Of a DNA stretch of 64,000 bases, positions 1,417 to 60,016 are shown in pieces. Within the stretch, counting starts at the first letter, position 1, and each line of letters begins with the position of its first letter. The translations under genes were made by a program, and so were the position numbers. Origin of the DNA: a virus; the IMG/VR virus record IMGVR_UViG_3300020045_002218, positions 32,001-96,000 of that record; one strand, 5' to 3'. Below the pieces are notes generated by a model that saw only the letters and a program-made list of their open reading frames with translations, did no database searches and had not been told where the DNA came from.

Positions 1417-1631
1417 AATTTTTGTAATGTAAGTTTAATTTGTTCATTAGACATATCATGTAACTGTCTAATGAATTTATTCATTCTTATACTCATGGGT
1501 TCATAAAATATTGTTTTAAGATACTCTCGATAGTCTCTAAACCCAGAATAATATATTAAACCTACATCTAATAATATAGAATGAAGTTCTTGGTTCTCTG
1601 TTGTTGAAGTAAATCCTTTTTGTTTTTCCAT
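1413..1631 (-). CDS. hypothetical protein
   Basis: ORF in coupled operon. Confidence 0.65.
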   Translation of the reverse strand: MEKQKGFTSTTENQELHSILLDVGLIYYSGFRDYREYLKTIFYEPMSIRMNKFIRQLHDMSNEQIKLTLQKL

Positions 1632-1632
1632 G

Positions 1633-1860
1633 TTATGCGTTTAAGTGATAAATTAATTGTATACAATTTCCTAAAATAGATAGTGAAAGTAACCAGAGTA
1701 TTAAAAATGATTTCATTCTTTCATCAGAAAGTTCTGAATGTAATGCTCTCCATTGAGATAACATACCATCAATTTCTTGTATAGCTTCTTTTCTTTTTAT
1801 CCATTCTCCTTTAGGATCTTCTAACATTCCTTTAAACCGTGTATGTCTAAATCGTTTCAT
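1633..1860 (-). CDS. hypothetical membrane protein
   Basis: C-terminal hydrophobic helix; ATGA overlap with polymerase C gene. Confidence 0.65.
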   Translation of the reverse strand: MKRFRHTRFKGMLEDPKGEWIKRKEAIQEIDGMLSQWRALHSELSDERMKSFLILWLLSLSILGNCIQLIYHLNA

Positions 1861-2960
1861 TTATTTCCCTTACAAATATCAAGTATTTGTTTTATTGTTG
1901 AGTTGTTTGGTAATCCAATAGGTGTACTCCAGTTAGGATAGAATAAATCTACACTAGCTGAAATCTTTACAATATCGTGCTGTATTGCTTCTAATTCTTG
2001 CCAAGCCATACACTCAGTTAATTTCTTATTAAACCATTCTACACAGCCTATAGTGTCTTTAATCAGGTAATACTGAGCATCATGTATATGTGCTGATGGT
2101 TTAATATCTAAAGCATATTTAGATGCTAATACTCTTTGTTGCATCTCAATAGCAGATCTATTATTAAGTAATCCATACGATTGACCTAAAGCATTACCTG
2201 CTGTTCTTGATTCAGCTTTAGCTTCATTAGGTGTATTTTTATTACCTAAAATAGTTTGTTTAAGAATAGGCGTTCTAACTCTTAAACCAAATGCACAAGT
2301 AACATAACCATCTTTAGTTGCTTGTACTAATTGAGTATGAACCCATTCATCACTTACTTGATAAAGCTTATGATAATTGGTTTCAATTTGTTTAGCTCTT
2401 TCAACAGGTAAACCAAGATTCTTAACTAAGGTACTCCAAGTACCCTGATAAGTTAAGGCAAATGTTGGACACTTACTTTCTTGTCTCCAGTAAGGATATA
2501 CCTTAGCAATTGAATTAATAGACTCTACAGTATTTACTATATCAGGAAATTGTTCAGGAAAGTAAGCATAAGCTCTTAACGAATGTCCATCAAAACCGTC
2601 AACGTAACATTTTAGTTTGTTGGGATCTTTAGTTGTAAGAGCAGATACTTTGTCCTCTAAAGCGTCAAAATCAGCTCCAGCAAATATCCATCCTTTAGGA
2701 GCAATAAAACATTTCTTAATTAACTTTCCATATTGACTATTAGAAGGCAAATTTTGTAAATTCGGGGATGAACTACTTAATCTACCTGATACAGTTCCTC
2801 CAAGGTTAAAATTACCATGCAGGTAATAATAACCATCATCCTTTAATATTGACTTCTCTTTAAATGCAGATATGAATGTAGAGAGAATTTTCTCGACTGC
2901 TGATAATTCAATGAGTGCTTTTAGTAGTTTAGCAATTTCTATTGCTTCTTGTTTTGTCAT
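1857..2960 (-). CDS. DNA polymerase family A, C-terminal polymerase part (N4 gp39-like)
   Basis: TVSGRLSSSSPNLQN; motif A ADFDALE; motif B RQESKCPTFALTYQG; motif C IHDA; start at 2960 overlaps an upstream TGA (ATGA). Confidence 0.93.
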   Translation of the reverse strand: MTKQEAIEIAKLLKALIELSAVEKILSTFISAFKEKSILKDDGYYYLHGNFNLGGTVSGRLSSSSPNLQNLPSNSQYGKLIKKCFIAPKGWIFAGADFDALEDKVSALTTKDPNKLKCYVDGFDGHSLRAYAYFPEQFPDIVNTVESINSIAKVYPYWRQESKCPTFALTYQGTWSTLVKNLGLPVERAKQIETNYHKLYQVSDEWVHTQLVQATKDGYVTCAFGLRVRTPILKQTILGNKNTPNEAKAESRTAGNALGQSYGLLNNRSAIEMQQRVLASKYALDIKPSAHIHDAQYYLIKDTIGCVEWFNKKLTECMAWQELEAIQHDIVKISASVDLFYPNWSTPIGLPNNSTIKQILDICKGNK

Positions 2961-3106
2961 AAACATCTTTGCCAAAGAATATTTAATCCACCTACTACAG
3001 CTCCTAAAAGATAATTTAACTCTTTAATAGGATTTACTTCCATTACTAAATAAGCTAAACCAAGATTTGCTATTAGTATTAATGTTTGTTTAAGTACACA
3101 ATTCAT
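2957..3106 (-). CDS. small hydrophobic protein
   Basis: MNCVLKQ... two hydrophobic segments; stop overlaps polymerase C start. Confidence 0.5.
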   Translation of the reverse strand: MNCVLKQTLILIANLGLAYLVMEVNPIKELNYLLGAVVGGLNILWQRCL

Positions 3107-3317
3107 AAGTAACATCCTCAAGTAAATAATCTCTTGCTTGTAAAGCATAAGCATAAATATGATTCATATCATCTCTTCCATAAGTATCAATATCAAAGTA
3201 ATCTTCTTCATCAATCTCAGGAAATTCTTCTGATAAATACTCATAATAATTCTGTTCTTCAGTATAGATAACATTATCTACAAGTTTTTGAAATACTTCT
3301 TTATGTGTTTTATTCAT
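3090..3317 (-). CDS. acidic hypothetical protein
   Basis: D/E/Y-rich ORF, ATGA-coupled. Confidence 0.65.
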   Translation of the reverse strand: MNKTHKEVFQKLVDNVIYTEEQNYYEYLSEEFPEIDEEDYFDIDTYGRDDMNHIYAYALQARDYLLEDVTYELCT

Positions 3318-3475
3318 TTGTATTGCTCACATTGATCTTGTTGATCACTAAAGTTACTACAAGGATTGTTAATATCTACAGTAATATTTAAAGCTATAAA
3401 AAGTAATACAGTTAAAATAATTAAATCAAGGAATATAATAAATTCGTTTAAAAACTGTAAGGACTCTTTAATCAT
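3314..3475 (-). CDS. small membrane protein (53 aa, not in ORF track)
   Basis: MIKESLQFLNEFIIFLDLIILTVLLFIALN...; fills the gap and overlaps both neighbours. Confidence 0.55.
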   Translation of the reverse strand: MIKESLQFLNEFIIFLDLIILTVLLFIALNITVDINNPCSNFSDQQDQCEQYK

Positions 3476-3755
3476 GACCTTCACTTAATATTATAGACTT
3501 TAATGATTCAAAAGCTTCTGGAAGTATTTGTAATAATTGTTCCTTATAGTCACCTAACCAAAAACCTATTTTTATGTTTTGTTTAGAATGATGTAGTATT
3601 TCGTTTTGTTCTAAAAGAGTTTTATTAATACTTTCTAATGAAATAGTTTTTTCTTCTAACTCATTTACTTTATTTGTTAAATCTATAATTTGCATACGAG
3701 AATGTGAAAGTATATATAACACCTTTTTTGTTTCTTCATCTAATTCAGTATTCAT
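3468..3755 (-). CDS. coiled-coil hypothetical protein
   Basis: Heptad pattern; ATGA-coupled. Confidence 0.65.
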   Translation of the reverse strand: MNTELDEETKKVLYILSHSRMQIIDLTNKVNELEEKTISLESINKTLLEQNEILHHSKQNIKIGFWLGDYKEQLLQILPEAFESLKSIILSEGHD

Positions 3756-3973
3756 TTGATTACCTCCATATAGTTAGTTGGTTCAAAGTCTTCATCTAAT
3801 TTAAAAATAACTATACCATTTCTATCTAATCCCCATCTAACCGCAAACCAACAACCTTCTTCAATATCATTTTCTGTAAAGGTGTTATGTTGAGGATTCT
3901 CTTTAAAATGTTTAGCTGCTTTAAGAACAAAAACTTCTTCTTCTTTTCTAGCTGATAAGTAAATATGTTTCAT
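3752..3973 (-). CDS. hypothetical protein
   Basis: ATGA-coupled ORF. Confidence 0.65.
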   Translation of the reverse strand: MKHIYLSARKEEEVFVLKAAKHFKENPQHNTFTENDIEEGCWFAVRWGLDRNGIVIFKLDEDFEPTNYMEVIK

Positions 3974-4191
3974 TTAAACTCCAAAGGTAATTCTAAATGT
4001 GATACAAGTAATTTAATAAATGTACATAATTCTTCTTTTGATAATTTACAAGAATCATAATCAGCAACTGAAATATAACAAGTACCATTTGGTTTACTTT
4101 CAAAAGATAATCCAGCTAATTCTATCTCTTTCTTATCTTTAAATTTAAAAGCATAAGCATCTTTATTACCTATAGGTATGTGTTGTTCCAT
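3970..4191 (-). CDS. hypothetical protein
   Basis: AAGGAAG RBS upstream. Confidence 0.65.
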   Translation of the reverse strand: MEQHIPIGNKDAYAFKFKDKKEIELAGLSFESKPNGTCYISVADYDSCKLSKEELCTFIKLLVSHLELPLEFK

Positions 4192-4203
4192 TATTCTTCC
4201 TTA

Positions 4204-4410
4204 TTAATCAATATAACAATATTCAATAGTTTCTGAGCCTGTCAGTCTATCAATTCTTTTGAATTTTAATTTTATTCTTATGTATTCAGATCCTTCTAGT
4301 CTTTGATTATGGTATTCTTTATACCATTTTTCAGAAATCTCTTTAATAGGTTCTTCACGATACCGATTAAATAAACGATCCCAAAGATTTAATTTCTCAG
4401 GTTCAGCCAT
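4204..4410 (-). CDS. hypothetical protein
   Basis: Likely start MAEPEK, 1 nt after the polymerase N stop. Confidence 0.6.
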   Translation of the reverse strand: MAEPEKLNLWDRLFNRYREEPIKEISEKWYKEYHNQRLEGSEYIRIKLKFKRIDRLTGSETIEYCYID

Positions 4411-4411
4411 G

Positions 4412-6007
4412 TTACTCTTCCTCAAATATTTCTGATAATGATTCATCTAATTTAAATGAATCTTCTGTTAAACCAAACTCTGATAAGAGTTGATTATATT
4501 TTTTAAGTAATATCTTACCTCCTGTTGCACCTAAGCCCGTATCTGTTCTATCAGTAATCTCAAAGCCTAATTGATTGTAAACCAATTCAATTAACTGTTT
4601 AGGACTACTAGGGTTGAATGTAACTGGTTTAGGTATTTCTCTTGGTTTGATATTCTCAGGTTTCTTAGCTTTAGCTTTTCTATCTTCATAATCTTTAATC
4701 CAAGCTTGATTAGTAAGTGTTTCCTCTAACTGCTTAATTAAAGGATTATCTTGTATCTGAGCTAATTGAATATCTTTAATAGCTATTAACTCTTGTTCTG
4801 CTTTAAGAACTCGGTTCATGTCCAAGACCATTCCAGTTAATTCCATCTGAAGAATTACTTTTACAGAAGGAATAAAGATAGTATTGTAAATATCAAGTTG
4901 ATTATCAGCTACCATTATTGGATAGTTCTTTTTATAAAGATACCAAGTAGCTAAACAGTCTGTAAGGTTATATCTCAGTAAATCTTGCTTAGATATTAAC
5001 CTAATATCTTTAATATCCTCTTGAGCATAGTTACCCGTATATTCATGTGTATTTGGTTTAAGACCTAATGTATTACCTGCACATGAATTAGTAGCTAAGT
5101 ATGTAATGAGTTTTGTATCATCAACATTCTTAGTCATTACTTCTAAACCATAAAGTAATCCTTGCTGATCTAATAAGTTATTCATGAATAATTCATATAG
5201 GATAACCTTAGCATCATATCCAATATTGTGATATATAAGCTTTCCTTTATATGATTCAAAAAATTGTTTTAATAATGCTTTCTTATCATAGTTATCTATG
5301 TGATTTTGAAAGTAATTAGAAGATATTCCCTCTATATCTATAGAATCATAATCAATACAAAAAGCAATACCATTATGTTCATCCCAAGCAAATGCAATTG
5401 TACCAATACCTGCTTCATTGAAAGATAAGCTAAAGGCTTCTATGTCTACCGTTAAGGCATCATACTGATGTAACCTATCCAACCATAAGGCTATCTCTTC
5501 TATCGTGTCAGGATACGCTTCAGATTCAATAATATCACTACCTATTTCCTTATATGAACCAAGTACATGATTAGCTAAAGTAGATAGTGATAAATCAATT
5601 TTGCTTTGTTTACTTGGATCATAAAATAACACTTTGTAATTAAGAGATAGAATACAATTTATGTGTTCATATCCTTTAATCTTACAAGGTAAGATATACC
5701 CTAAATGAGGATCTACTTTAGTTACTCCTGTTAGGTATTTGAAATATGTACCATCACAAACTAACAAGGTATCTATCCCTAATGAGTGCAATGCAGGAAG
5801 TAAGCTACTTAGATATTCCTTGGCTTGAGAAGCTGTAGGTTTATCATATTTGAGACTAAAAGAGATTATAGTTGAAACATCCAATCCTAGAGCCTCTAAG
5901 GGGTCTAAATAATGCTTTTGGACTTCAGGTAATGAAAGACAAGTTTCTTTCATTAACAAGGCTATATGGAGATTCTCAGTTGAATTATGATGTAATAGGT
6001 GTTTCAT
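4412..6007 (-). CDS. DNA polymerase family A, N-terminal part (UDG-like domain, 3'-5' exonuclease, thumb start)
   Basis: ExoI DIEAF, ExoII HNIGYD, ExoIII YNLTD, QMELTG, FNPSSPKQL; N4 gp39-like N-terminus. Confidence 0.92.
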   Translation of the reverse strand: MKHLLHHNSTENLHIALLMKETCLSLPEVQKHYLDPLEALGLDVSTIISFSLKYDKPTASQAKEYLSSLLPALHSLGIDTLLVCDGTYFKYLTGVTKVDPHLGYILPCKIKGYEHINCILSLNYKVLFYDPSKQSKIDLSLSTLANHVLGSYKEIGSDIIESEAYPDTIEEIALWLDRLHQYDALTVDIEAFSLSFNEAGIGTIAFAWDEHNGIAFCIDYDSIDIEGISSNYFQNHIDNYDKKALLKQFFESYKGKLIYHNIGYDAKVILYELFMNNLLDQQGLLYGLEVMTKNVDDTKLITYLATNSCAGNTLGLKPNTHEYTGNYAQEDIKDIRLISKQDLLRYNLTDCLATWYLYKKNYPIMVADNQLDIYNTIFIPSVKVILQMELTGMVLDMNRVLKAEQELIAIKDIQLAQIQDNPLIKQLEETLTNQAWIKDYEDRKAKAKKPENIKPREIPKPVTFNPSSPKQLIELVYNQLGFEITDRTDTGLGATGGKILLKKYNQLLSEFGLTEDSFKLDESLSEIFEEE

Positions 6008-6353
6008 AAATATTACCTATAACTTCACATTCTTTATGATAAAAAGCTAAAATTACATTTCCCATAACAAAACATCCATCTTTAAAAGAGATTGCAAATT
6101 TAGAATGATTCCACGGTACAGAAACTAAATCACCTTCAAAGAGTTCTTTACCATTTTTATCTTTTAAACCAGTAAACTGTCCTTCAGATCCTTTTACTAC
6201 TTCATATCCTTGAACATTTGCTTTTCTATAAGGCTCATTAGTAACAAGCCATATTCTAGGTAAAATATTACCATCACCAGAATCTGAACAAATACCTATC
6301 CCATATATCCATCCTTTATCTAAACTGAACCCTCTAAACTTACTTTCTCTCAT
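5985..6353 (-). CDS. YopX family protein
   Basis: KFRG...GQFTGLKDKNGKELFEGD...EVIGNIYE. Confidence 0.85.
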   Translation of the reverse strand: MRESKFRGFSLDKGWIYGIGICSDSGDGNILPRIWLVTNEPYRKANVQGYEVVKGSEGQFTGLKDKNGKELFEGDLVSVPWNHSKFAISFKDGCFVMGNVILAFYHKECEVIGNIYETPITS

Positions 6354-6494
6354 TGTTTTACCCTCTTTTCAATATACTCAATACACCATAAACTACCAAC
6401 CACATAACCAACATGATATGTAGTACCATCTTTACTATCTTGAAACATCCTTGTACACTTCCCTCCTAAATTACTTTGTAACTCTTTTACATTT

Positions 6495-7421
6495 TTAGCT
6501 CTGTGTACTTGATTGTACTGGTCTATGAATATTCGTTTCATTTTTAAATACTCTTGATCCAAATATTAATAATTGTTTAATGTCTAGCTTGTGACATCCG
6601 ATACAAAGTACATTATCTTTCAAAGAAATAACTGTGTAGGTATTATCAATCTTTAAACCAATAACATCTTTACCATCTCTAAGTAACTCATACAATTCTT
6701 TTACTTTATCTTTATGAATTGTAATACCTTGAGTAGTTTGAATTTCTTGAGTCTTTTCGTTGTATCTTAATCTAGTTAAACCAGTATATGAGTAACAAGA
6801 ATTAGCTTCAAAGTTTAACCATAGAGCTAACTGCTCTTCACCTTTTAATGCTCTAAACTCATCTTCTTTTTGTTGTTTAAGAATACGTTGATGAGCTTTA
6901 TCATTTTCCTTGGTTTGCCATTCGGCATAATTAGGTATGTAATCTACTGGAAGAAATTCATTCTCTAACCATCTAAAGTCTGCTAAAGAGCATTGTTCAG
7001 GATATAAAGCAACTAACTTAAGAACATTAATTCTTTCATGGTTTGCTGTTTGAAGATATTCTAACTTTCTACTAATAGCTTTAGGTATTTTATTTAAAGT
7101 ATCTTTAATTAAACCAATATTCCTTTGTATTAATACTCTAGGTGTTTGTGAAGGATCTTCTACATAAATGATATTCCAATTAGAAGGAATAGCACTTCTT
7201 AAGAGTGATTGTTGTTTTGATGTAGTATTAGAAAAACTTCTTGTATCTACTAATATGGTTTGATTAGGGAGTTTCTTACCTATCATTGCTCCATAACGGT
7301 AGCTGTATAGGTCATTGCCCTCAGCAAACATTCTATTGTTTGGGGTATGACCTTCAAAACTATCATCTCCATATATCCAAGCATGTAATAACTGGTTGTA
7401 TCCTGAATAAGCTTTAATCAT
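6495..7421 (-). CDS. phage hypothetical protein
   Basis: 308-aa ORF in gene train. Confidence 0.75.
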   Translation of the reverse strand: MIKAYSGYNQLLHAWIYGDDSFEGHTPNNRMFAEGNDLYSYRYGAMIGKKLPNQTILVDTRSFSNTTSKQQSLLRSAIPSNWNIIYVEDPSQTPRVLIQRNIGLIKDTLNKIPKAISRKLEYLQTANHERINVLKLVALYPEQCSLADFRWLENEFLPVDYIPNYAEWQTKENDKAHQRILKQQKEDEFRALKGEEQLALWLNFEANSCYSYTGLTRLRYNEKTQEIQTTQGITIHKDKVKELYELLRDGKDVIGLKIDNTYTVISLKDNVLCIGCHKLDIKQLLIFGSRVFKNETNIHRPVQSSTQS

Positions 7422-48097: not shown

Positions 48098-51000
48098 ATG
48101 TCTTCTACATTTAGGGGTTCAACTTTTGATAGTTCTTCTTTTGATAACAATACTGACTTGGTACATCAAAAGAAAACAAGTCTATTAGATAAAGTATTTC
48201 AAAAGAGAACTGATTTAGGATTCAGTTCAGCTAATTTAAAGGATAGATCTGTAGAAGCATTGGATGCTGATACAGTTAGAATTAATCCTAGTGTAGCAGA
48301 TAAAGCTTTTGATCCTATGGTTAAACCAGTAGATGTAAGACTTAAAAGTAATAACTTTGGTGAATCATTTAATGCTTTTGAGACTTCTCATGATAATGAA
48401 GATGATCCTGAAGTAGCTGCTAGATTACAAAAACAAAGAGATACTATTGATAATGAATGGACTCATGGTTGGTTTAATCCAGCTACAAACCAAGATGTAT
48501 ATGATAGAGGTAATGCTAGTAAACAAGTATTAACAGATAAGCTTAAAACAGTCAATGAAGGTAAAACTGGATTAGACTTTGCTTTAGGTGAAAAAATTCA
48601 ATTAGACAAATTTGGTAGACCATTAGGTGATATGAAATTCTCTAATGAGGATGTATCTGCTATTGATGCTATGAATACTCCTGAGTTAAATGCTTCCTAT
48701 AACACACCATATAACTTTGCTAAAGTAAACAAAGATGGTGGTGGATTAATAGATACAGCTAAAGACTTTGCAGGTACTCTTTTAACTAAAACACCTACCG
48801 TATTAGGTAACATAGCTGTTGGTACTCATGGTTTAGCTTCTGCAATGGTTAATGCACCTACACAGGCACTAGGAAATATTGTAGGTGGTGATACTGGAGA
48901 CAGCATTAAAAAGTTTGGTGATATAGCTAGTACCTATGAGTTACAAAATATTCTTCAAAATAGAACTCATTATGCTAAACCTTTAGTAGATGCTTTACCT
49001 ATATCGGATGAGGCAAAAGACACCTTAAACAATCTTAAATATGAACCAAATAGATTAGATGCTACTACTGATAAGCTATATCAATCTGATGCTTTAGCTA
49101 AGTCAAGACAGGATTCTGAATACAGATCAAACCAAACACAAAGATTAAGGGATGAATTAGGGTATAAACCAAAAGGTGTATATGAGAGTGCTATGGCACT
49201 CTCTTCTGATGTAGTGGATTCATTACAGGCATTTGTAGAGAATCCTAGAGCAACACTTACACATGATTTACCTGCTAACATAGCTCAATTAGCTGTACCT
49301 ATTGGAGTTACAGGAAGAATTGTAGATAACATAGCTATGAAAATTGCATCTAAAACTTCTGGAGGAGTTGTTGATGGTGTAATTACCCAAGTAGGTAAAG
49401 ATGCAGCAACTAAATATATTAGTTCTGCTCCTGTACAAAAACAGTTATTAGCTATAGGTGGTTTAACTGAAGGTACTCAAGCAGCATCTTCTATTGTAAA
49501 TCAGGCAGAAGAAGCTAATGTATCTCCTAGTCAGTATTTAGCACCAGCTATTGTAGGAGGTGTTGTTACAGGTCTTATTGGTACTGGTTCAAATAAATTA
49601 CTTGGTGCTACAGCAGCAGATGCTCTAGTTGGTGTAAACAGAGTTAAAGGATCTGCATTTACTAAAGCTCTTAAAGCGTTTACATCAGAAGGGATAGTAG
49701 AAGAATTTCCACAATCGGTAAATGAACAGTTAGCTACAAATATTGCATTAGGAAAAGAAAATGTAATAGAAGGTGTAGGTCAAGCAGGTGGTTCAGGAGC
49801 TATTGTTGGTGGTCTATTAGGTGGAGGTATGCACACACCTATATTGTTACAGGATGTTCTACAAGCTCGAAAAACACCTTCAGTTGAACCAACATCCGTC
49901 TCAGAAGAGAAACCTTCTACAATCGAAGATTTGACACCTTCTAAGGTAGATATTAAAGCTTATGAAGATTCAGTTAATAACATTACAGATGACAACAGAC
50001 AAGAAGTTATAAACCAAGGTATTAAAGATTATCCTGTTGACGGTACTTTACCTGAAAAGATTCAAATGGCTGTAGCCATTGGTAAAGCTAGAGATGGGTT
50101 TAATTCACCAGAGCATGATGCAATATATAGACAAATTAATGCAGAAATTCAATTACAGAATTTTGCTAAAGGAATGCCTAACTTCAATGATGTAATTTCT
50201 GATCCAAATACTTCAATTGAAGATATTCAAGATAATCTTATTACAGGTGCAGTAGATTCTACATCAGAGAATACTGGCTCATTATTTAATGATATTGGTA
50301 GAACTAAAGATGAGGATACATTAAATATTCTTAAAGATATTTCTATAGCTAAACAAAAAGAGTATGCTGAAAGTGATACAGTAAATGATCCTTATGTATT
50401 AGTTACTACAGGTATTGAAACTAAAAACTTACCTAAAGAATCTTCTGAAGTATTCTCATCTATTACAAGGAATGAATATACAGACTTAAATCAAGGATTA
50501 ACTTTATTATCTAGTCATGTTAAATCAGCTACAACACCAGAACAAAAGAATACTGGTATATCAGCATTAACTAAAACTATCTCTAAAGTATATTCAGATA
50601 AAGTAGATATTACTTCTGCTACAGAAAGATCAGTTAAACAAGCATTAAATACTATTAATGGTTTAGTTAATAACAAAGGTACTATTACTATTGAACCAAG
50701 TGATACATTAGAACAGATTCACAATAAGATATTACCTACATTTGGTTCAACTCCTATTAAAGGTAGTTCTAGTAATCCTAAAGCAAATGCTTTTATAAAA
50801 GCTACTAATAAAGTATTACAAGGCGCACAAACATTATCTAAATTCTTAACACAAAAATATGTAAATGATAAAACCACAGGTGAAGTACATCAAGAAATAA
50901 TTGATGGTAAAGGTGAGAAATTAAGTGTACTAGACCATGCTACTATTATTTCTGGAAAGATTGCAGATACAAATTCTGATGAAGAATCAGTAAATAGGGC

Positions 51001-54000
51001 ATTTAATAGATTTACTAACTGGGTAGACTTTCATACACAAAAAGCAGAATTATCTACTGCACTAGGAGCTATTCCAGAATCTAATAAGAAAGCTCAACAA
51101 ATAATTGAAACAGCATTAGAAACTTTACAAGGACAAGATACTTTTAAAGAATTTAAGAGTAATCCAATTATATGGACTAAAGGATTATCTAGTTTAGCTG
51201 AGACAATGAATGCTGAAGTATTTTTCATGCAGAATACTCTTGATACTTTACAAGAATTAAAAGATGCTAGGTTTGGTTCTAAAAATACTGCTACACAAGT
51301 AACCTCTACTGCTGAAAGTATCTCTCAGACTGATGAGAATGCCCTAGATTTAACGAATGTAAATCAGGAAGATACTATTGAAGAAATCAATATGGATGAT
51401 ATTCCTGAGAAATCAGTAACCTCTAAAGAATCTTCATTTAATGAAGAACAAGAAAAAATTTATCAAGATTATGAAGCTGAACAAGATTCACAACAACAAG
51501 CTCAAAATGAGCCTACAAGCAACGAAATAAGTAAATCTGAAGAAGTTATTACCTCAGAAAAGAAAGCTTCTGTAACAGTATCTACAGAGCTTACAGAGGT
51601 ATCTTTGGATAATGAACAGACTCAAGATTTACTTGAAGTACCTTTACCACCTGAAGATACTAAAAATTATTCAGAGTTAATTAATAGAACGTATTTCCCC
51701 TTTAGTACAGAAGAACAACTTAAAAGTATTAGAATATTTTTCTTTGCTAATGCTCTAAAAAATAAGATACCTGAAGCAAAAGCTAGATTTTTGTACTTAC
51801 AAGAGTTAGCTACAAATAATAAAGATACTATTAATGAGACATTTGATTTACCTATCTGGCGTTTTGATATTATAAGACCATATTCTTTAACTCATAAATG
51901 GAAAGATGGTAAGTTAGTATCTAAAACTAGAGCAGTAATTACTTCCTTAATAGATAACACAAAGCAATTCTTTAGTGATTTATTTAATATTAAAAATGAT
52001 AATTTATTTAACAGAATTCCTAATTTATTGGAACATATCCAACAAAATAAATTAGTAAATAATGATAGCTTAGATGCAATAGTTAAGTTTCATACTGATT
52101 TTGTTAAAACATTTGAAGCTAATATTAACCCTGAATTACTTAAAGAAAGTTTATCTGATAATGCTGCATCATCATTATTTGTATATGATCCTAAAAAAGG
52201 TAAAACATACCTAGAACCAAATACTTTATTTGCTATGAGTCTTGGTTCAATACAGTTTTTACAAACAGCACTATCTACGGTTTATAATGATGATGATGCT
52301 ATTAGAAGTATTGTTGGTTTAAAAGAAGGTGACAACTTACCCGCTTATGTAAGAGATTTATTAAGTGATAAAGGTTCTGTAGCTAACATAATGAAGAATC
52401 AATTAGGAGCTTCTTTATCTAAGTTGTTAGGTGTAACATATAAACCAGATACTACATTACCTCAAATCGAAGGATTTGAAGCTTCATTAGGTGCTTATGC
52501 TTTAAGAACTCTTATTGATATAAAATTACTCGAAGAAACTCAAATTGAGAAATCTACTATTAATGCTATGAAGAATCAACTTGAAGAAGGAACTCTTCCA
52601 GGAAACCAAAAGACACAAGATATAGTAAATAAACTTTACATTGGTGCAACAACCTTTGTAAGAGTAGCTGCACAAAAGAATATTGAAACAGGAAGACCTG
52701 AAGTAAAATCTGAAATTAAAGAACTACTTGAAGCTATTAAACCAGCAAGTAAAGAATTAGATGATTTACTTAATACAACATTTTCAGAAGCATTACCTTC
52801 AGGTAGTAAAACTTCCTTGAAGGCTTTAAAAAAATGGTTAGGTAAAACTTGGCAAGGTTCTAATGCTGAATATACAGAAGCAGAATACAAAGCAATAAAG
52901 AAGTATAACGATACTGCATATACAGCAGAAACTAAAGCTATGAATGCTGCTTTAATATTAGATGAAGAATTTATTAAACAAGTAGCTTTAGGTGAACAGT
53001 ATACTGATGTAGTTCAAAAACATTTTGAAAAGACTAGAGCAGGTAAAGAATTACAAGCAGAGAATGAGTACAAGTATTTGATGGATTCCTTTGATGTATT
53101 TAAAGAACATGGTTCACTTTACTTCTTATCTAAGTTTTGGAAACAAGGAAGAGTAGGTATGGAGAAAGGACCGCAAAACAGTAAAATGATGAGATGGTTA
53201 TTTGCTCCTAAAGGTGTTGAATATGAAGTTAACTTATCTAACAAAGAATCCTCTAAATTCTTTAAATTAGCTGTTGTAGCAGCATTTGGTACAAAGATAG
53301 ATCAAATATTAGATACAGCCTTAGATAAAGAATTTGATGCCTTACTGGTCAAATATAAAGATGTCCTAGAAGACTACTCTAAAACTAAAGGATATACAGA
53401 AAATGTAACACAAGAAATGAAAGATACTCTTCTTGATGCTATATATGCTGGTAAAGAAGGATTTCATAGTTATGCTGGATTACTTGAATTAGCCCATTAC
53501 AATGAGAATAAAGATAAAGGTAAATTTACTTCTCAGTTAATGAGAGAAGATGATGGTATTACTAATGGTCCAGCAATAGGATGGTTACTCTTTAATGGTG
53601 GAGATAATAAAAGAGTATTAGATGGATTTGCTATCTTTACAGATAGTCATGAAGATACATTTACTACTCACATGGCTAAAGAAGGTAGTGCAGATAATTA
53701 CAATCTTATGGGTCAAAAAGCTAAAGAGAACCAAGTAATTGTTAATAATAAATTAGAAGAGTTAAACACTTACTTAACAGAGAATCCAACTGTAAGATCT
53801 TCTATATTTAGAATTAAATATTATGATAAAAAGAACGGAACAGACTCTTTTAATGCTTGGTTCTATAAACAAGGTTTAGGGGATATGTTTGCTACAAATT
53901 CTTATGAGTTTGGTTTATTACTTAATGTTATTGAAGAATCTAAAACTCTTATAGATACCAACGAAGGTAAGAAGAAAGCTAATTATAAAGAGAATTTACA

Positions 54001-57000
54001 ACCTACTCTAAATGCAATTCATTCTATGGTAGGGGAGTTAAATAGATCATTTGCTAAGATGCCTTTAATGACGCTTATCTTTGGTTCGGGTATTAATAAG
54101 ATTGCTAGTAATATTGGATATATTGCTATTGATTCTATGTATGAAAAGATTCAAAAGGTTATTAGAAGTAAACCAAAGAACCAAGAAGAAATAGATGCAC
54201 AGAGAATATTACTTAAAGAAATAGAAGATAATATTATTGAGCTTACAGGATATGATATTCCTTTACCTTTAAACGAAGATAAAGAAGAAGATGCTTCTCT
54301 TTATTCTAATTCTGTTGCAGAAGATTACGATTCAACATTAGCTGCATATTCTATTGAAGCTCTTAAGAATTTTAAATTACCTATTTATGTAGAAAAGAAA
54401 TTAGCTAAACAAATAGCTAATGTTTATGTACCTATTATTAGAGCTTCTGTTAATGCTAACTTTCAAACATTTATTGATAACAGAAAAGCTATAAACCAAA
54501 TATATGATATAGGTAATACTGTACTTAAAACACATATAGAACATGAAGTATCTCTTGTTCTTAAAGATGGTTTAACTAAACAGAAGTTATTAGATATTTT
54601 TGAGAAAGCAGTTAAGCTAATGCCTTCAATGAAAGTACCTAATTTTGATGGTACTGAGAGAGAAATATTCTATTGGAATAAAGATGAATCTAGTTCTACT
54701 ATGCCTGAATTTAAGGTACAAGTAAAACGTAAAAAGAATAAAGAAATACTGTCTTTTTCTTATTTAGATGATAACGGTGAGGTACATACAAGTAAACCAG
54801 TAATACTTAACAGTTCAACTGATACAGGTCATGCAGTAGGTATATTACTTGAAGCTATAGGTGTAAGAACACCTATTATGACTATTCACTATACAGATTC
54901 TTTACCTGTTAAAGAAATAATGAACAGTAACTTAATATCTACTATGGTTCATGATGCTAGAATTGGTGCAGCAAATACTTCTGATGAAGGAAGTTATTTG
55001 ATGAATAAGAAGTTGCTTGAAAGCATTAATTTACTTAATCCATTTAAACAAGCAACAGATTATTTACAACAAGTATTTGATAACTTACCTAAAGGAGATT
55101 CTAAACTATCTAGTAAATTAAAAGATGCTTTAGAGAAACCTTTAAAAGAAGCATTTAAGAATAAACAAACTGTTCCTCATGTACAACAAGGTAAAAGAAA
55201 GGTAAGTCCTTTAGTCTATAACAAAGAAAATTCAGGTAAACAATTTAAAGATTATTTAGGCTATTTAAATGAATGGGTGAAATACCAAACAGGTGTAAAA
55301 AATGAGATAGCTAAGTCTATTAAAGCATTTGGTAACTATGGTGGTAATGCTACATTTAAACCTCAAATGGTTGAAGCTGTTAAACAAGACAATTTCAGAG
55401 AATTAGTAGCAGAAGAGTTTAAAGATGTACTAAAGAATATCTCTTTAGGTAAAGGAAATAAACCGTTAAACGATATAACAGATAAGCTTATAAATCTATA
55501 TACACAAGTAAATGTTGTAGAAACACTGCAAGAGTTTATTAATAGAATAGATACTCTTGGTTTAACTATTGAGCAATTCAAACAACATCAAACCAATATT
55601 GAGAATAAAATATTAGGTACTTCTAAACAAGAAACTAAAACTAAACCAAATAAATCTAATAAAGAAGAAGTAACTAATTCAACAACTCAAACTAATGGGG
55701 ATAAATTAGTAATATTACCTATAGGTACTTCTGGTTCAGGTAAATCTACTTGGATTAAAAGTCTTAAAGGTGAGTATGTAATTATTTCTCCTGACGAAAT
55801 GAGAGTTGAATTCACAGGAAGTATGGATGATAAGTCTCAAGATAAAGAAATTTATGAAGCTGTAAAACAAAGAACTATTAAAGCTATAAATCAAGGCAAA
55901 CAGGTAATTATTGATAGTACAAATCTTCAAAGAGATAGAAGAAGAGACTTTACTAATGCTATTTTACAAGCTATTCCTGATGCTAACGTTGTTTATAAAT
56001 TACTTCCCTTAAATCCAGAATTAGCTAAACAAAGAATTAAAGCTCAAATAGATAAAGGTGAAAATAGAGCAAATGTTCCAGATAGTTCAATTGATAGACA
56101 TGCGGAATTATATAAGGAAATGCTTAATGATATTAAAGATGAGCCTATAAAAGAATTCAAAGAACAAACCAATGAAGATATTCCTTTTATTTTAACTAAA
56201 GATAAAGTACAAAAATTAAAAGAATTTCTAACTAAATACATAAACCAATCGTCTACATATTCTATAAAAGAGGTTCTTACTTTAGTAAATACTAAAGCTC
56301 CAGACTTTAAAGATATGGATATTGTAAAGTATATGTATGGACAGTTACTGTCTACATATTATTCTGATACAAAACAAAAAGAAGATTTTGAAAAAGGTAA
56401 TAATACTCCAGATCAATTTTATGCACATAAAAATTATTGGAATACTAGAAAAGAATATGGACTTAGATTAGTTAAAGACAATCAGTCTGGTAAAGTAAAA
56501 TTACAGAATATTAATAAACAACTTAATGAAAATAATAAACCTCTTGGTTCAACACCTGATGCTAAAGATTTACTTACCGATATAGAAGATTTAAAGAAAG
56601 ATATTACTACTGAGAATATAGTATCTGAATTTGATGCTATGCCTAAAGGTGATGATGAAACACATAACACATTCTTAAGAAATTTTGTGTCTCAAGTAAT
56701 AGCTCCAGTAGTAGAAGCAACTGAATTACTTCTGTTTAGTAAAGCTACATATACCTATGGACAGTATTCTGCTGAGTTAAAGAAAGTAGCTATTAACTTA
56801 GGTCAAGCATTACAAGAACAATACTCTCCATTTAAGATGTCTGCTCAAGAAGTATTTGCCCATGAATTCTCTCATGCTGTTACTTGGACTGCATATCAAA
56901 TGCCTAAGAATGGTACCCTTAAAAGAAAGATTGATAGTTTATTTTATAATGTAAGAAGAGAGTTTAATAAAGCTAAATTAATAGATACATCTTTAGCTAA

Positions 57001-60000
57001 TTGGGATTATGTATTTAATAATGCTGATACTATAAAAGTAGATAATGCTCCTAATTCTTTAGGAGAAGTAACAACTACTTCATACGACAGAGGTATTCAA
57101 GAGTTTATTGCTTTTGGTACTACTAACAAGGAATTTAGAAATCTAATTAAAAGACTTCAACCTAAACAATTAAAAGTAAATCAAGTATATGAAGGTACTG
57201 GTTCAGATGTAATTAAAGAAGCTTCTTGGTTAGAAACAATAACTAATATTTTTAAAAAAATATTAGATTCATTTATGAGAATAGCTAAAGGTAATGATTA
57301 CCTTGAACCATTAACTCAGTTTGATACTAATGTAAGGCTTATATTAGCTGCTAATATAGATAAACCTTTTATTAATATTACTGCTATTACAGATAAAGTA
57401 GAAGCTGAAGTAGCTAAAAAGACTAATGAAGGTTTTAAAAAAGGACTTAGAATCATTGCTAAAGGTAGAAATTCTAAAGTTCAAGCTATTAGAAGTGCCG
57501 CTAAATTAGCTGATGCTGTACCTGCTATTGGAGGATTTCAAACTAATCAAGTAGTAAGACAAACTCTTAAATTAATTACTAATCCAACAGCTAGACAATT
57601 TGCTTTAGACTTAGTTAAAGATATTGCTGATGTAAATGAAAATAGTAAACCAATAACTAATACAACTATTCAGCAGAAGACAGCAGATGCTGATAGAAAT
57701 AAAGCTACAGATTCTGATGAGAATAACTGGAGTAAACGAGTTACATTAAACCATGAACAAGATATAGCTTATAATAGTGTTCTTGTTAGAGGAGATTATG
57801 AGAGTCTTAATGATGCTTACGGTAATGATGCTATTAAGCTATTAAAGGATAAATCTTTTAGAGATAAAGAGATTAAACTTATTGAAGATCAAATATATAA
57901 CTTAAAAAGTAAAGCTCTTAACTTAGCTAATCTAATGGTTCATGGTAAGAATATGTTTAATGGTATGACAGAACATAATGCTGTACTTATTGCTAAACAA
58001 GGTAGAAGTATCTCTCAAGATAAGTATCAAAAAGAAATAGATTTAGTAACTAAACTAAGCAGACTTTATGCTATTGGTTTACAGGATGAAAACCAAGTAA
58101 ACCAAATAATATCTTTATTAGAAAGTAATTTTGATGGTATGAAACAAATGCTTAAAGTTCATAAAGAACTTAAGAAACAGCAGTTATCTGAAATAGATGC
58201 TCTTACTGTTATTGATGGTAAAACTCATACGACATTAGATCCAAACAAAACAATATTTTTAGGTACTAAAGAAGATGAAAAACATTTAGTATCTGATTGG
58301 AAAGCTAAAGTAATAGGTAGATTAGAAAGAGATCCTAATGATCCATTATCTACTGAAGGTATTTTGTATTTAGTAGATGTTAAAATGCAAAATGATTGGG
58401 ATGCTAAAGCTATGGCTACTACTGATATTACACCTGGCTCAAGTAATTTTCAGTCTGGTATAGTTAAAACCGATAGATTTAAAGCAGAAGAAAATAGAGA
58501 GAAAGCTAAACTTAAAGAAGATGGTACTAACACTAAAAATCATATATTTACAAGAAATAATTCTAATGTATCACGAGTAGCTATTCATAATGCTCAAGGT
58601 AAAATTATTAGATATGAATATATTCTTGATAGAGAAACACAAGAAAAATATCTTAATCCAAGAATAAATGTATTAAGGGACTTAGCTGCACAAAAGAATG
58701 GTACTGCATATAGAGCTAAAGCTTATGAGTTAAATCATAAGTTAGTGGATGCTCTTTTTGATTACTGGAAGAAATTAGGACATGATGCTAGAAAGGATAT
58801 GATTTGGGTTGGTTCAGATAGTAAGTATAGTGATTTATATAACACTATTCCTACGGAAACTAAAGAATATATTACTAAAATATTTGGTACTAAAAATGGA
58901 TTTTATATGGCAGAAGAAGAACTGCGAGAAGTATTTGGATACAGAAAACAATCTATAACTAATTGGATTCAACCTGTACAAGCTGATAATTTGAAAAAAA
59001 CTATAGGAAACATGATCTATGAGCAAGCTAAAAGATTTGGTTTAAACCAAGCTAATATTAAAGCTATAGAAACTATGTGGATTGAAGGTATAGCAATAGC
59101 TAAAGATACTATTGTTGTTAAATCTGGTGTTGTATCAGCAGCTAATGAATCAAGTAACTTTATGACTGCTAAGTTAGCTGGTGTTCCTATTGGATTCTAT
59201 TATAAAAATAAAATATCTGCTATGAAAGCAGAACAGGAATACAGAAGAAATTCTCATGCTTACTTATCTCATTTAAGTAATGCTTATGGTAATCCAGAAT
59301 ATATTACTAAAGAGATAGCTCAAGAAATGAGTATTCTTGAATCTGCATTATCAACTAATGAAATGAGTTATTTACATGATGAAGGATTAGCTTCAACAGT
59401 AGCTGAAGAAGGTTCTTATAAAGATAAACATCAAACCATGTTATTTAATAAAACTGAGAGAGCTAGAAACATATTTGATAAATTACCTAAAGTAGTTAAA
59501 GATACTCTTAAAATAGCATCAATATCTGAAGGTACTAAGATATATAAACTATTAGATGAGATAGCTCAAATGGGTGATATTACATCACGTCATGTATTAG
59601 TTAAATGGGAAGAAGAGAAAGCTAGACAACAAGGTAAAGAGTTTGATAAGAATAAAGCTATAGACTTATCTAAATTCTTATTTATCCAATATCACACAGT
59701 TACTAATGACTTGGTTCAATATGGTAATGATATTGGTTTGTTAATGTTTACTAAATTTGCTGTTAAGACACTCAAAGTCTTAACTTATATGGTAGGACAA
59801 CACCCTGCTAGATTATTAGCACTAGGTATCTTTGAAGAGTTATTTGCTACTACAGAGTGGATATGGCATACAAGTATGAATAAGTTAGCTAATCCAATTA
59901 CATCTGCTTTAGCTACTATTGATGCAAATCCAATAGTAAACTTATTAGTAACTCCTCCTGCTTATATGCCACAAGAAGTATTAGGGGCATTAAGTACACT

Positions 60001-60016
60001 TCCATTAGTACCATAG
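48098..60016 (+). CDS. virion-encapsidated RNA polymerase polyprotein (N4 gp50-like)
   Basis: 3972 aa, no Cys seen; motif A EDDGITNG, motif B RSFAKMPLMTLIFG, motif C VHDA; HEFSH zincin motif. Confidence 0.93.
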   Translation: MSSTFRGSTFDSSSFDNNTDLVHQKKTSLLDKVFQKRTDLGFSSANLKDRSVEALDADTVRINPSVADKAFDPMVKPVDVRLKSNNFGESFNAFETSHDNEDDPEVAARLQKQRDTIDNEWTHGWFNPATNQDVYDRGNASKQVLTDKLKTVNEGKTGLDFALGEKIQLDKFGRPLGDMKFSNEDVSAIDAMNTPELNASYNTPYNFAKVNKDGGGLIDTAKDFAGTLLTKTPTVLGNIAVGTHGLASAMVNAPTQALGNIVGGDTGDSIKKFGDIASTYELQNILQNRTHYAKPLVDALPISDEAKDTLNNLKYEPNRLDATTDKLYQSDALAKSRQDSEYRSNQTQRLRDELGYKPKGVYESAMALSSDVVDSLQAFVENPRATLTHDLPANIAQLAVPIGVTGRIVDNIAMKIASKTSGGVVDGVITQVGKDAATKYISSAPVQKQLLAIGGLTEGTQAASSIVNQAEEANVSPSQYLAPAIVGGVVTGLIGTGSNKLLGATAADALVGVNRVKGSAFTKALKAFTSEGIVEEFPQSVNEQLATNIALGKENVIEGVGQAGGSGAIVGGLLGGGMHTPILLQDVLQARKTPSVEPTSVSEEKPSTIEDLTPSKVDIKAYEDSVNNITDDNRQEVINQGIKDYPVDGTLPEKIQMAVAIGKARDGFNSPEHDAIYRQINAEIQLQNFAKGMPNFNDVISDPNTSIEDIQDNLITGAVDSTSENTGSLFNDIGRTKDEDTLNILKDISIAKQKEYAESDTVNDPYVLVTTGIETKNLPKESSEVFSSITRNEYTDLNQGLTLLSSHVKSATTPEQKNTGISALTKTISKVYSDKVDITSATERSVKQALNTINGLVNNKGTITIEPSDTLEQIHNKILPTFGSTPIKGSSSNPKANAFIKATNKVLQGAQTLSKFLTQKYVNDKTTGEVHQEIIDGKGEKLSVLDHATIISGKIADTNSDEESVNRAFNRFTNWVDFHTQKAELSTALGAIPESNKKAQQIIETALETLQGQDTFKEFKSNPIIWTKGLSSLAETMNAEVFFMQNTLDTLQELKDARFGSKNTATQVTSTAESISQTDENALDLTNVNQEDTIEEINMDDIPEKSVTSKESSFNEEQEKIYQDYEAEQDSQQQAQNEPTSNEISKSEEVITSEKKASVTVSTELTEVSLDNEQTQDLLEVPLPPEDTKNYSELINRTYFPFSTEEQLKSIRIFFFANALKNKIPEAKARFLYLQELATNNKDTINETFDLPIWRFDIIRPYSLTHKWKDGKLVSKTRAVITSLIDNTKQFFSDLFNIKNDNLFNRIPNLLEHIQQNKLVNNDSLDAIVKFHTDFVKTFEANINPELLKESLSDNAASSLFVYDPKKGKTYLEPNTLFAMSLGSIQFLQTALSTVYNDDDAIRSIVGLKEGDNLPAYVRDLLSDKGSVANIMKNQLGASLSKLLGVTYKPDTTLPQIEGFEASLGAYALRTLIDIKLLEETQIEKSTINAMKNQLEEGTLPGNQKTQDIVNKLYIGATTFVRVAAQKNIETGRPEVKSEIKELLEAIKPASKELDDLLNTTFSEALPSGSKTSLKALKKWLGKTWQGSNAEYTEAEYKAIKKYNDTAYTAETKAMNAALILDEEFIKQVALGEQYTDVVQKHFEKTRAGKELQAENEYKYLMDSFDVFKEHGSLYFLSKFWKQGRVGMEKGPQNSKMMRWLFAPKGVEYEVNLSNKESSKFFKLAVVAAFGTKIDQILDTALDKEFDALLVKYKDVLEDYSKTKGYTENVTQEMKDTLLDAIYAGKEGFHSYAGLLELAHYNENKDKGKFTSQLMREDDGITNGPAIGWLLFNGGDNKRVLDGFAIFTDSHEDTFTTHMAKEGSADNYNLMGQKAKENQVIVNNKLEELNTYLTENPTVRSSIFRIKYYDKKNGTDSFNAWFYKQGLGDMFATNSYEFGLLLNVIEESKTLIDTNEGKKKANYKENLQPTLNAIHSMVGELNRSFAKMPLMTLIFGSGINKIASNIGYIAIDSMYEKIQKVIRSKPKNQEEIDAQRILLKEIEDNIIELTGYDIPLPLNEDKEEDASLYSNSVAEDYDSTLAAYSIEALKNFKLPIYVEKKLAKQIANVYVPIIRASVNANFQTFIDNRKAINQIYDIGNTVLKTHIEHEVSLVLKDGLTKQKLLDIFEKAVKLMPSMKVPNFDGTEREIFYWNKDESSSTMPEFKVQVKRKKNKEILSFSYLDDNGEVHTSKPVILNSSTDTGHAVGILLEAIGVRTPIMTIHYTDSLPVKEIMNSNLISTMVHDARIGAANTSDEGSYLMNKKLLESINLLNPFKQATDYLQQVFDNLPKGDSKLSSKLKDALEKPLKEAFKNKQTVPHVQQGKRKVSPLVYNKENSGKQFKDYLGYLNEWVKYQTGVKNEIAKSIKAFGNYGGNATFKPQMVEAVKQDNFRELVAEEFKDVLKNISLGKGNKPLNDITDKLINLYTQVNVVETLQEFINRIDTLGLTIEQFKQHQTNIENKILGTSKQETKTKPNKSNKEEVTNSTTQTNGDKLVILPIGTSGSGKSTWIKSLKGEYVIISPDEMRVEFTGSMDDKSQDKEIYEAVKQRTIKAINQGKQVIIDSTNLQRDRRRDFTNAILQAIPDANVVYKLLPLNPELAKQRIKAQIDKGENRANVPDSSIDRHAELYKEMLNDIKDEPIKEFKEQTNEDIPFILTKDKVQKLKEFLTKYINQSSTYSIKEVLTLVNTKAPDFKDMDIVKYMYGQLLSTYYSDTKQKEDFEKGNNTPDQFYAHKNYWNTRKEYGLRLVKDNQSGKVKLQNINKQLNENNKPLGSTPDAKDLLTDIEDLKKDITTENIVSEFDAMPKGDDETHNTFLRNFVSQVIAPVVEATELLLFSKATYTYGQYSAELKKVAINLGQALQEQYSPFKMSAQEVFAHEFSHAVTWTAYQMPKNGTLKRKIDSLFYNVRREFNKAKLIDTSLANWDYVFNNADTIKVDNAPNSLGEVTTTSYDRGIQEFIAFGTTNKEFRNLIKRLQPKQLKVNQVYEGTGSDVIKEASWLETITNIFKKILDSFMRIAKGNDYLEPLTQFDTNVRLILAANIDKPFINITAITDKVEAEVAKKTNEGFKKGLRIIAKGRNSKVQAIRSAAKLADAVPAIGGFQTNQVVRQTLKLITNPTARQFALDLVKDIADVNENSKPITNTTIQQKTADADRNKATDSDENNWSKRVTLNHEQDIAYNSVLVRGDYESLNDAYGNDAIKLLKDKSFRDKEIKLIEDQIYNLKSKALNLANLMVHGKNMFNGMTEHNAVLIAKQGRSISQDKYQKEIDLVTKLSRLYAIGLQDENQVNQIISLLESNFDGMKQMLKVHKELKKQQLSEIDALTVIDGKTHTTLDPNKTIFLGTKEDEKHLVSDWKAKVIGRLERDPNDPLSTEGILYLVDVKMQNDWDAKAMATTDITPGSSNFQSGIVKTDRFKAEENREKAKLKEDGTNTKNHIFTRNNSNVSRVAIHNAQGKIIRYEYILDRETQEKYLNPRINVLRDLAAQKNGTAYRAKAYELNHKLVDALFDYWKKLGHDARKDMIWVGSDSKYSDLYNTIPTETKEYITKIFGTKNGFYMAEEELREVFGYRKQSITNWIQPVQADNLKKTIGNMIYEQAKRFGLNQANIKAIETMWIEGIAIAKDTIVVKSGVVSAANESSNFMTAKLAGVPIGFYYKNKISAMKAEQEYRRNSHAYLSHLSNAYGNPEYITKEIAQEMSILESALSTNEMSYLHDEGLASTVAEEGSYKDKHQTMLFNKTERARNIFDKLPKVVKDTLKIASISEGTKIYKLLDEIAQMGDITSRHVLVKWEEEKARQQGKEFDKNKAIDLSKFLFIQYHTVTNDLVQYGNDIGLLMFTKFAVKTLKVLTYMVGQHPARLLALGIFEELFATTEWIWHTSMNKLANPITSALATIDANPIVNLLVTPPAYMPQEVLGALSTLPLVP

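Follow-up and report, generated by a model that had tools for sequence, protein, structure and literature searches.

Genes for essential phage enzymes are known to occur in pieces. In T4-like phages, nrdA of Aeh1 is split by a free-standing endonuclease (nrdA-a/mobE/nrdA-b), and the division of gene 43 in phage 25 is likewise associated with one; the divided NrdA is reported to function fully and the 43A/43B products to co-purify with polymerase activity, and in phage 44RR (43A/43B) the split persists without an endonuclease (reviewed by Edgell et al. 2010, PMC2988022). Among N4-like phages, a split polymerase has been reported in the Vibrio phages JA1/VCO139 (Fouts et al. 2013, PMC3670811), and Escherichia phage Pollock (KM236242) has a gp44/HNH gp45/gp46 polymerase arrangement. 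For family A polymerases (PolA), the fission into exonuclease and polymerase genes in S-SBP1-type T7-like cyanophages, of frameshift origin, was described as the first in PolA by Czernecki et al. 2023 (PMC10201439), who treated N4-like enzymes as single chains (cluster 17). Here we analyse a stretch of 64,000 nucleotides (the window; positions 32,001 to 96,000 of IMG/VR record IMGVR_UViG_3300020045_002218) from an uncultured N4-like phage, in which the homologue of the N4 DNA polymerase gp39 is encoded by two genes with seven small open reading frames (ORFs) between them. We consider it very likely that this is a two-polypeptide family A polymerase, cut in the thumb and inherited within a clade, whose halves presumably assemble non-covalently. 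That an essential phage gene may lie in pieces is known; the thumb site, the clade-wide state, the conserved tail and the endonuclease-free cargo are new here.

As in JA1/VCO139 and Pollock, a gp39-type polymerase is laid out in the same genomic module as a pair of genes in the same orientation, separated by foreign DNA. In those phages, however, the cut falls within motif A of the palm or shortly behind it (N parts of 559 and 648 residues), contains one HNH gene and is sporadic, whereas in the window it lies about 50–130 residues earlier, between thumb helices H2 and I, is clade-wide, is accompanied by a conserved tail and encloses seven non-endonuclease genes. The T4-like cases (Aeh1, 25 and 44RR) likewise present an essential replication enzyme cut into two reassembling polypeptides, but they concern a family B polymerase or a ribonucleotide reductase known from few isolates, and what lies at the cut is one endonuclease or a spacer that is not translated, in contrast to the family A enzyme, clade-wide split and multi-gene cargo slot of the window. 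S-SBP1 shares with our locus a family A phage polymerase made from two adjacent genes, for which AlphaFold predicts reassembly of the single-chain fold; its fission falls between the exonuclease and polymerase domains and has no inserted genes, whereas the window's cut is inside the polymerase domain. In the ‘fractured genes’ of Dassa et al. 2009 (PMC2677866), a metagenomic replication gene also appears as two ORFs with coding DNA between them, but these carry split inteins and a free-standing endonuclease; the window halves are without intein halves, so no protein splicing is expected. Finally, the thumb tip accepts large additions with the fold retained, such as the T7 thioredoxin-binding domain and the phiKMV-like thumb extension (PMC10201439), and the break in the window lies in this same region; those insertions are in-frame within one chain, whereas here the chain itself is broken. 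Our literature search turned up no thumb split in an N4-like polymerase.

The window makes up most of the roughly 70-kb genome of this phage, which belongs with the Schitoviridae, and includes the ORF for the giant virion RNA polymerase (3972 residues) at 48098–60016. Matches to the gp39 homologue were found in 476 phage records, the best of them in Schitoviridae at 45–48% identity; against cultured N4-like phages, identity is 45–48% for the N half and about 60% for the C half. The two halves are encoded as follows.

4412..6007, minus strand: polymerase N half, an ORF of 531 residues with an N-terminal alpha/beta domain, the 3'-5' exonuclease, the start of the polymerase domain and thumb helices to H2

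1857..2960, minus strand: polymerase C half, 367 residues with PF00476, thumb helix I, palm, fingers and motifs A, B and C

An earlier note, made from the sequence of this stretch, had read the locus as two independent polymerase genes that together approximate one N4-type gp39 and are separated by seven small ORFs, and all of this is confirmed by the ORF listing, by PHROG 17 (DNA polymerase) and by tblastn with the polymerase of phage EcP1. The N half, which ends in ..DTGLGATGGKILLKKYNQLLSEFGLTEDSFKLDESLSEIFEEE, matches PHROG 17 at profile positions 518–922 (E 5e-67), and the C half follows at 931–1250. The intact EcP1 enzyme (865 residues) is covered by the halves jointly, with its residues 1–488 on 6007–4502 (47.8% identity) and its residues 497–853 on 2939–1872 (57% identity), leaving a junction shortfall of only about 8 residues relative to an intact N4-type polymerase. 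No second polymerase was found, EcP1 giving no further tblastn match anywhere in the 64-kb window. In Pfam, PF00476 was matched by the C half only (E 1.3e-34). The C-half ORF spans 1857–2975 on the minus strand and would encode 372 residues from a TTG start; the start used in relatives is the ATG at 2960–2958 (MTKQEAIEIAKLLKAL..), which gives 367 residues and, just as the earlier note had it, overlaps the TGA of the preceding ORF in an ATGA at 2960–2957.

Both halves retain their catalytic residues. In the N half, an alpha/beta domain, a candidate for the N-terminal family 4 UDG-like domain of the N4-like subfamily, is modelled at residues ~1–165 and aligns with intact N4-like enzymes, the profile aligns to the Klenow exonuclease domain, and the exonuclease residues D188, E190, D265, Y346 and D350 are invariant across 36 N halves. 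In the C half, the motif residues D96, E101, R158, K162, Y170, H292 and D293 (numbered without the initiator Met) are invariant in 93 C halves. The AlphaFold model of the N half alone has a mean predicted local distance difference test score (pLDDT) of 86.9, with a helix at 497–510 and the last 12 residues disordered without a partner; Foldseek searches with this model returned Pol I/Klenow as top matches (E 1e-10), and DEDD nucleases were also matched. Against relatives, both halves show ratios of non-synonymous to synonymous substitution rates (dN/dS) of 0.19–0.36, indicating purifying selection.

Alignment to Klenow and Klentaq places the cut in the thumb, where the earlier note had put it, at the junction of helices H2 and I. 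The N-half profile aligns as far as Klenow chain ~293 (..STSEEVLEE, helix H2) and the C half from Klenow ~300 or Klentaq 236 (helix I), over Klenow chain 300–510 and Klentaq 236–445, so that the break falls between Klenow chain ~293 and ~300. A T7-like break between exonuclease and polymerase domains was not found; the chain is interrupted inside the polymerase domain, past H2.

The same cut occurs in at least eight IMG/VR contigs of different samples, listed here with the identity of their N half to that of the window and the number of genes in the gap.

L010: N half 85% identical, 2 gap genes

L003: N half 80% identical, 3 gap genes, HNH included

L004: N half 62% identical, 3 gap genes

L023, L024, L026 and L027: N half 42% identical, 1 gap gene

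L036: N half 37% identical, 0 gap genes, the two genes overlapping

In L036 (7490–7521) the thumb split takes a minimal form, in which the C half begins, in another frame, within the last codons of an N half that closes with ..FDFTDEDIDG*, an overlap that suggests translational coupling.

Relatives of each half were also drawn from a collection of 5.8 billion proteins, keeping the best 120 per half. Stand-alone N halves (<550 residues) account for 35 of the 120 best N-half relatives, and stand-alone C halves (400 residues or shorter) for 94 of the 120 best C-half relatives; the former all carry a common tail motif, the latter share the same start point, and all of them are metagenomic. Relatives known from protein only include P0001 (91% identical) and P0121 (88%). 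Three segments mark the two sides of the junction.

4454..4498, minus strand: split-specific tail, N-half residues 504–518 (YNQLLSEFGLTEDSF), from the thumb alignment and the tails of 35 N halves

4415..4453, minus strand: acidic tail extension, N-half residues 519–531 (KLDESLSEIFEEE), subclade-specific and with pLDDT <50 in the isolated model

2883..2957, minus strand: C-half head helix (TKQEAIEIAKLLKALIELSAVEKIL), far better conserved than the remaining C half

The tail, a helix-and-turn of 15 residues with the motif ..KK(H)LNxLIxEFxITEE(E/D)L (also written ..LxxLIxEFxITEEEL), is an extra segment at the end of every stand-alone N half, and intact enzymes are without it. The comparison is sharpest for the intact protein P0181, the sister of the split P0166: the two follow the same pattern to ..KKHL and diverge exactly at the tail start, and P0181 has no tail. 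Over the last 34 N-half codons (498–531, acidic extension included), dN/dS is 0.22 against L010. On the other side of the junction, the 94 stand-alone C halves start 3–14 residues ahead of (E)AIExAK(I/L)LKALI, and the C halves of the window and L010 are 90% identical over the first 40 residues and 40–55% beyond. Short queries with the tail matched none of 50,697 phage records, such queries being limited in sensitivity. The acidic end ..SLSEIFEEE is common to P0121–P0127 and recurs as ..ELFEEE in P0133–P0137, thus as ..(I/L)FEEE in two subclades. A MAFFT pairing in which the N tail appeared as a duplicate of the C head was dropped, since the larger alignment shows the tail to be an extra segment absent from intact enzymes.

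We built a tree from 121 N regions, in which the 36 split rows are confined to a single side of 48 rows; the 21-row clade that contains the window is uniformly split, with a support of 97. Judged from these sequences, a large metagenomic clade has inherited the split as an ancient state, together with a conserved tail motif. The gene is uninterrupted at the same point in EcP1, phCDa, pVco-5, D456 and many IMG/VR loci, phCDa, pVco-5 and D456 being the nearest cultured phages, and other contigs are cut elsewhere. Recurrent cuts of N4-like polymerase genes at other sites were seen in L001, L014, L020, L028, L033 and L040 (Pollock, VCO139 and IMG/VR contigs), namely behind SGRLSSSxP, in motif A or past it, and close to residue 146 of the C half; 18 of the 120 best N-half relatives have intermediate lengths of 560–724 residues.

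To the earlier suggestion that the added ends form an interface, structural modelling of the two halves together lends predicted support. The complex model scored 0.87 and the best of 3 controls 0.00; of 80 solved complexes 58 attain that mark, and of 110 mismatched pairs 2 do. The score may simply mirror the known fold of the single chain. At least 93% of contacts are shared between runs, the partner pLDDT is at least 86, and the interface, of about 300 contacts, contains N-half residues 500–530 (tail 500–518, acidic end 520–530) and C-half residues 2 and 5–25. As the score reports likeness to the intact fold, it supports a shared fold of the two pieces, with binding of these copies itself only predicted. 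The proposal of a natural heterodimeric PolA thus divides into two parts: that the thumb split is natural stands, given the same cut in relatives, and heterodimer formation and activity are modelled.

The halves could also be separate exonuclease and polymerase enzymes that meet only on DNA, like Pol III epsilon and alpha. Exonuclease and polymerase are separated into two genes in T7-like cyanophages (PMC10201439), and the N half modelled alone folds confidently without the C half. However, the cut inside the polymerase domain leaves three of the four thumb helices and the first palm elements on the N half and the C half alone without a thumb, and the size of the modelled interface speaks for one joint enzyme, which makes two independent enzymes improbable.

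We also considered whether the pieces are rejoined into a single-chain polymerase through a group I or II intron, a split intein or ribosome bypass. Introns and inteins do occur elsewhere in N4-like phages (PMC5746245, PMC3670811), and in contig L009 (6001–9663) this polymerase is interrupted at SGRLSS/C; an HNH gene separates the two parts, each of which gives weak Intein_splicing matches. In the window, on the other hand, an Rfam scan of 1500–6500 gave no intron family and only one chance-level miRNA match, in agreement with the earlier note, which had seen no group I intron core. The gap is coding throughout, and its length in relatives is anything from 0 to 1.45 kb. EEE closes the N half, whose 28-residue tail is free of Cys; in the C half, the alignment with intact enzymes begins near residue 10, leaving no space for a C-intein and no HN-Cys/Ser/Thr junction; and no Pfam intein domain was detected in either half at E up to 0.1, which upholds the absence of intein signatures noted before and sets the window apart from L009. 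Tail and head are, moreover, conserved as protein, with synonymous changes. Rejoining is therefore highly improbable for the window. The break after SGRLSS in L009 recurs in P0182, with an inserted sequence starting CLP.G..V in both and an HNH_3 gene between the flanking ORFs of L009; it looks like a split-intein ‘fractured gene’ as in Dassa et al. 2009.

The gap between the two polymerase genes (2961–4411, 1451 nucleotides) is taken up by seven ORFs, all in the same orientation and closely packed, with stop and start codons that overlap; the start codons of g1, g5 and g7 are ambiguous.

g1: 4204..4410, minus strand, 68 residues from an ATG behind GAGGA, or 80 residues if the start is at 4446

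g2: 3970..4191, minus strand, 73 residues, no homologue among the compared relative loci

g3: 3752..3973, minus strand, 73 residues, conserved in the L010 gap

g4: 3468..3755, minus strand, 95 residues, weak, sub-threshold Pfam matches to helical domains only

g5: 3314..3475, minus strand, 53–56 residues, hydrophobic core FIIFLDLIILTVLLFIALNI, no family match

g6: 3090..3317, minus strand, 75 residues, very acidic

g7: 2957..3106, minus strand, 49 residues from an ATG behind GAGGA, or 65 residues from 3154, hydrophobic, its TGA overlapping the C-half ATG

None of the seven has a family match in Pfam (above threshold), PHROGs or PADLOC, and these same scans detected no homing endonuclease among them, which bears out the earlier impression that none looks like one. 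Two genes could be traced into relatives: g3 recurs only in L010, as a 78% identical copy right behind the N-half stop (dN/dS 0.27), and g6 only in L003, as an 83% identical homologue directly upstream of the C half (dN/dS 0.32). Only 7 close clusters of g3 exist among the 5.8 billion proteins, and g6 has one representative cluster in 1.84 billion proteins, for which ESM Atlas gave no lead; g3 and g6, the two gap genes searched widely, are thus confined to the lineage of the window, with few near-identical relatives.

The contents of the gap are changeable. Relatives with 62–87% N-half identity differ in gap content, and 0, 1, 2, 3 or 7 genes occupy 0 to 1.45 kb across those compared. Contigs of four other sequencing runs differ by cassette-level indels that coincide exactly with gene borders; the joints lie at 4412 (the N-half stop), 3751, 3088 and 2960–2968 (the C-half start). 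The first gene, g1, is missing from L010, L003 and L004, and relatives' contigs link 4412 straight to 4051 or 3400; the g4 segment is exactly absent or replaced (joints 3429/3456 to 3751). The least certain gene is g7, a segment that L003 is without and that relatives skip at 2968–3088, or at 2960–3100 with 9 other letters. The split point is thus an insertion hotspot, as had been suspected from the window alone. Most genes of the locus have a GAGG-type ribosome-binding site or a stop-start overlap. No terminator-like sites (0) and no GC-rich hairpins were found in the gap, and promoter-like sites were not in excess (24 against 29.4 expected from shuffles); together with the overlapping stops and starts, this makes a single transcription unit across the locus plausible. 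Just upstream of the polymerase, at 5985–6353 on the minus strand, lies a gene of 122 residues (..GNIYETPITS) with homologues at the same place in L003 and L004; the window has no Dda-type helicase gene at the place usual in N4-like phages.

Although no endonuclease was recognised in the gap of the window, an HNH gene sits at exactly the same site in the 80% identical L003, as the first gap gene (a 227-residue ORF, PHROG 374, E 1e-73), which points to endonuclease insertion as the likely origin of the split. HNH genes are also found at other cuts of N4-like polymerases, in Pollock, VCO139, L009 and L020. By analogy with the phage genes described above, the most economical route would be an endonuclease-made ‘gene in pieces’. 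A free-standing homing endonuclease gene would have inserted at the thumb tip and created the cut, as still seen in L003; the polymerase frame would have run on into the insert, and the resulting tail would have been kept for helping the pieces dock. The endonuclease would then have been lost and the two-piece enzyme fixed; with the enzyme working in two pieces, the gap would have become a neutral, well-expressed landing site at which small accessory genes come and go as cassettes. The nine genes would be co-transcribed and translated via their own ribosome-binding sites or stop-start coupling.

The trees of the two halves disagree. In the N-half tree the window, L010 and L003 group against L004 (99/98), whereas in the C-half tree the window groups with L003 and L010 with L004 (100/100), and the N-half topology is rejected for the C half (approximately unbiased test, p 7.8e-7), in a test group that was picked after the identity table had been seen and with a chimeric L010 assembly possible. 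A swap of whole halves exactly at the cut does not describe this, since the L010 breakpoint lies within the C half, ~60–90 codons in. It follows that the head helix stays with its own N half and tail, which fits either co-adaptation of docking ends or co-conversion around a homing site. The C half of L010 (7940–9040) is mosaic, its first ~40–60 residues window-like and the remainder L004-like, and the next downstream gene is L003-like.

Several points weigh against the preferred reading. The tree requires at least three to seven state changes, and the intact P0181 lies inside a split clade, so that the split cannot be traced with confidence to one event; the junction may have been gained repeatedly, lost through recombination or spread horizontally. 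The assembly of the halves rests on a model, whose pass may reflect solved single-chain PolA structures. The window's own gap has no recognisable endonuclease, and the proposed origin leans on one close relative and on analogy. The search for a further polymerase covered the 64-kb window, and about 6.6 kb of the genome lies outside it. Public sequencing runs share at most 0.08 of the window's words, and the window's own reads were not found among them.

This last point would favour an explanation of the split as a chimeric metagenome assembly or as a dead gene of a defective phage, and L003 might be read in the same way, since its C half carries an in-frame TAG inside motif B. In the read mapping that the earlier note proposed, only relatives were recovered, and the window's assembly is supported by the same architecture in other assemblies. 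That architecture is present in the at least eight IMG/VR contigs of different samples and in dozens of protein clusters drawn from four databases; contigs of other runs bridge the N-half stop into the gap genes; and dN/dS well below 1 and invariant catalytic residues argue against a dead gene. We regard an artefact or a dead gene as very unlikely. The TAG of L003 (9203–9205) lies within a 3-codon insertion in motif B (..PTFLL*LTYGG..) and may mean that the copy is dead, that the assembly is in error there or that the gene is broken once more.

A more serious alternative, which we hold to be possible though clearly less probable than inheritance, is that the split arose repeatedly or spreads horizontally at this site, with a homing cassette that co-converts tail and head, so that the ends would be footprints and not docking adaptations. 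The number of state changes on the tree, the divergence of P0181 from P0166 exactly at the tail start, the L010 mosaic with its rejected N-half topology and the HNH gene at the cut in L003 all fit such a scenario. Against it, the tail motif is retained at the amino-acid level between N halves with no more than about 37–50% identity, most of the examined gaps are without an endonuclease, and tail and head lie within the modelled interface. The two readings of the conserved ends are not exclusive, and both can hold.

Within the preferred reading of an inherited two-piece polymerase, one may go further and propose that the tail–head pair is a dedicated docking module which made the thumb tip a lasting joint of two subunits, that the gap is a privileged expression slot, coupled to an essential gene, for fast-changing host-takeover or counter-defence genes, and that ..IFEEE is a partner-binding tail. 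This extension is speculative and, in our judgement, doubtful; by analogy, and just as tentatively, the ..IFEEE tail would resemble those of single-strand-binding proteins and helicases that contact polymerases.

For annotation, the finding carries a warning: because the N half has no Pfam polymerase match, polymerases of this kind risk being miscalled as truncated or missing. To those who would engineer family A polymerases in two pieces, the locus offers a naturally occurring split site already tested by evolution; it is also a defined hotspot for finding small phage accessory genes. For the biology of these phages, its meaning lies in the persistence of the split. Splitting of essential phage enzymes by selfish DNA is usually sporadic and recent, whereas here it is retained across a large, diverse uncultured group, making this polymerase a test case for a selfish insertion turning into a fixed subunit boundary.

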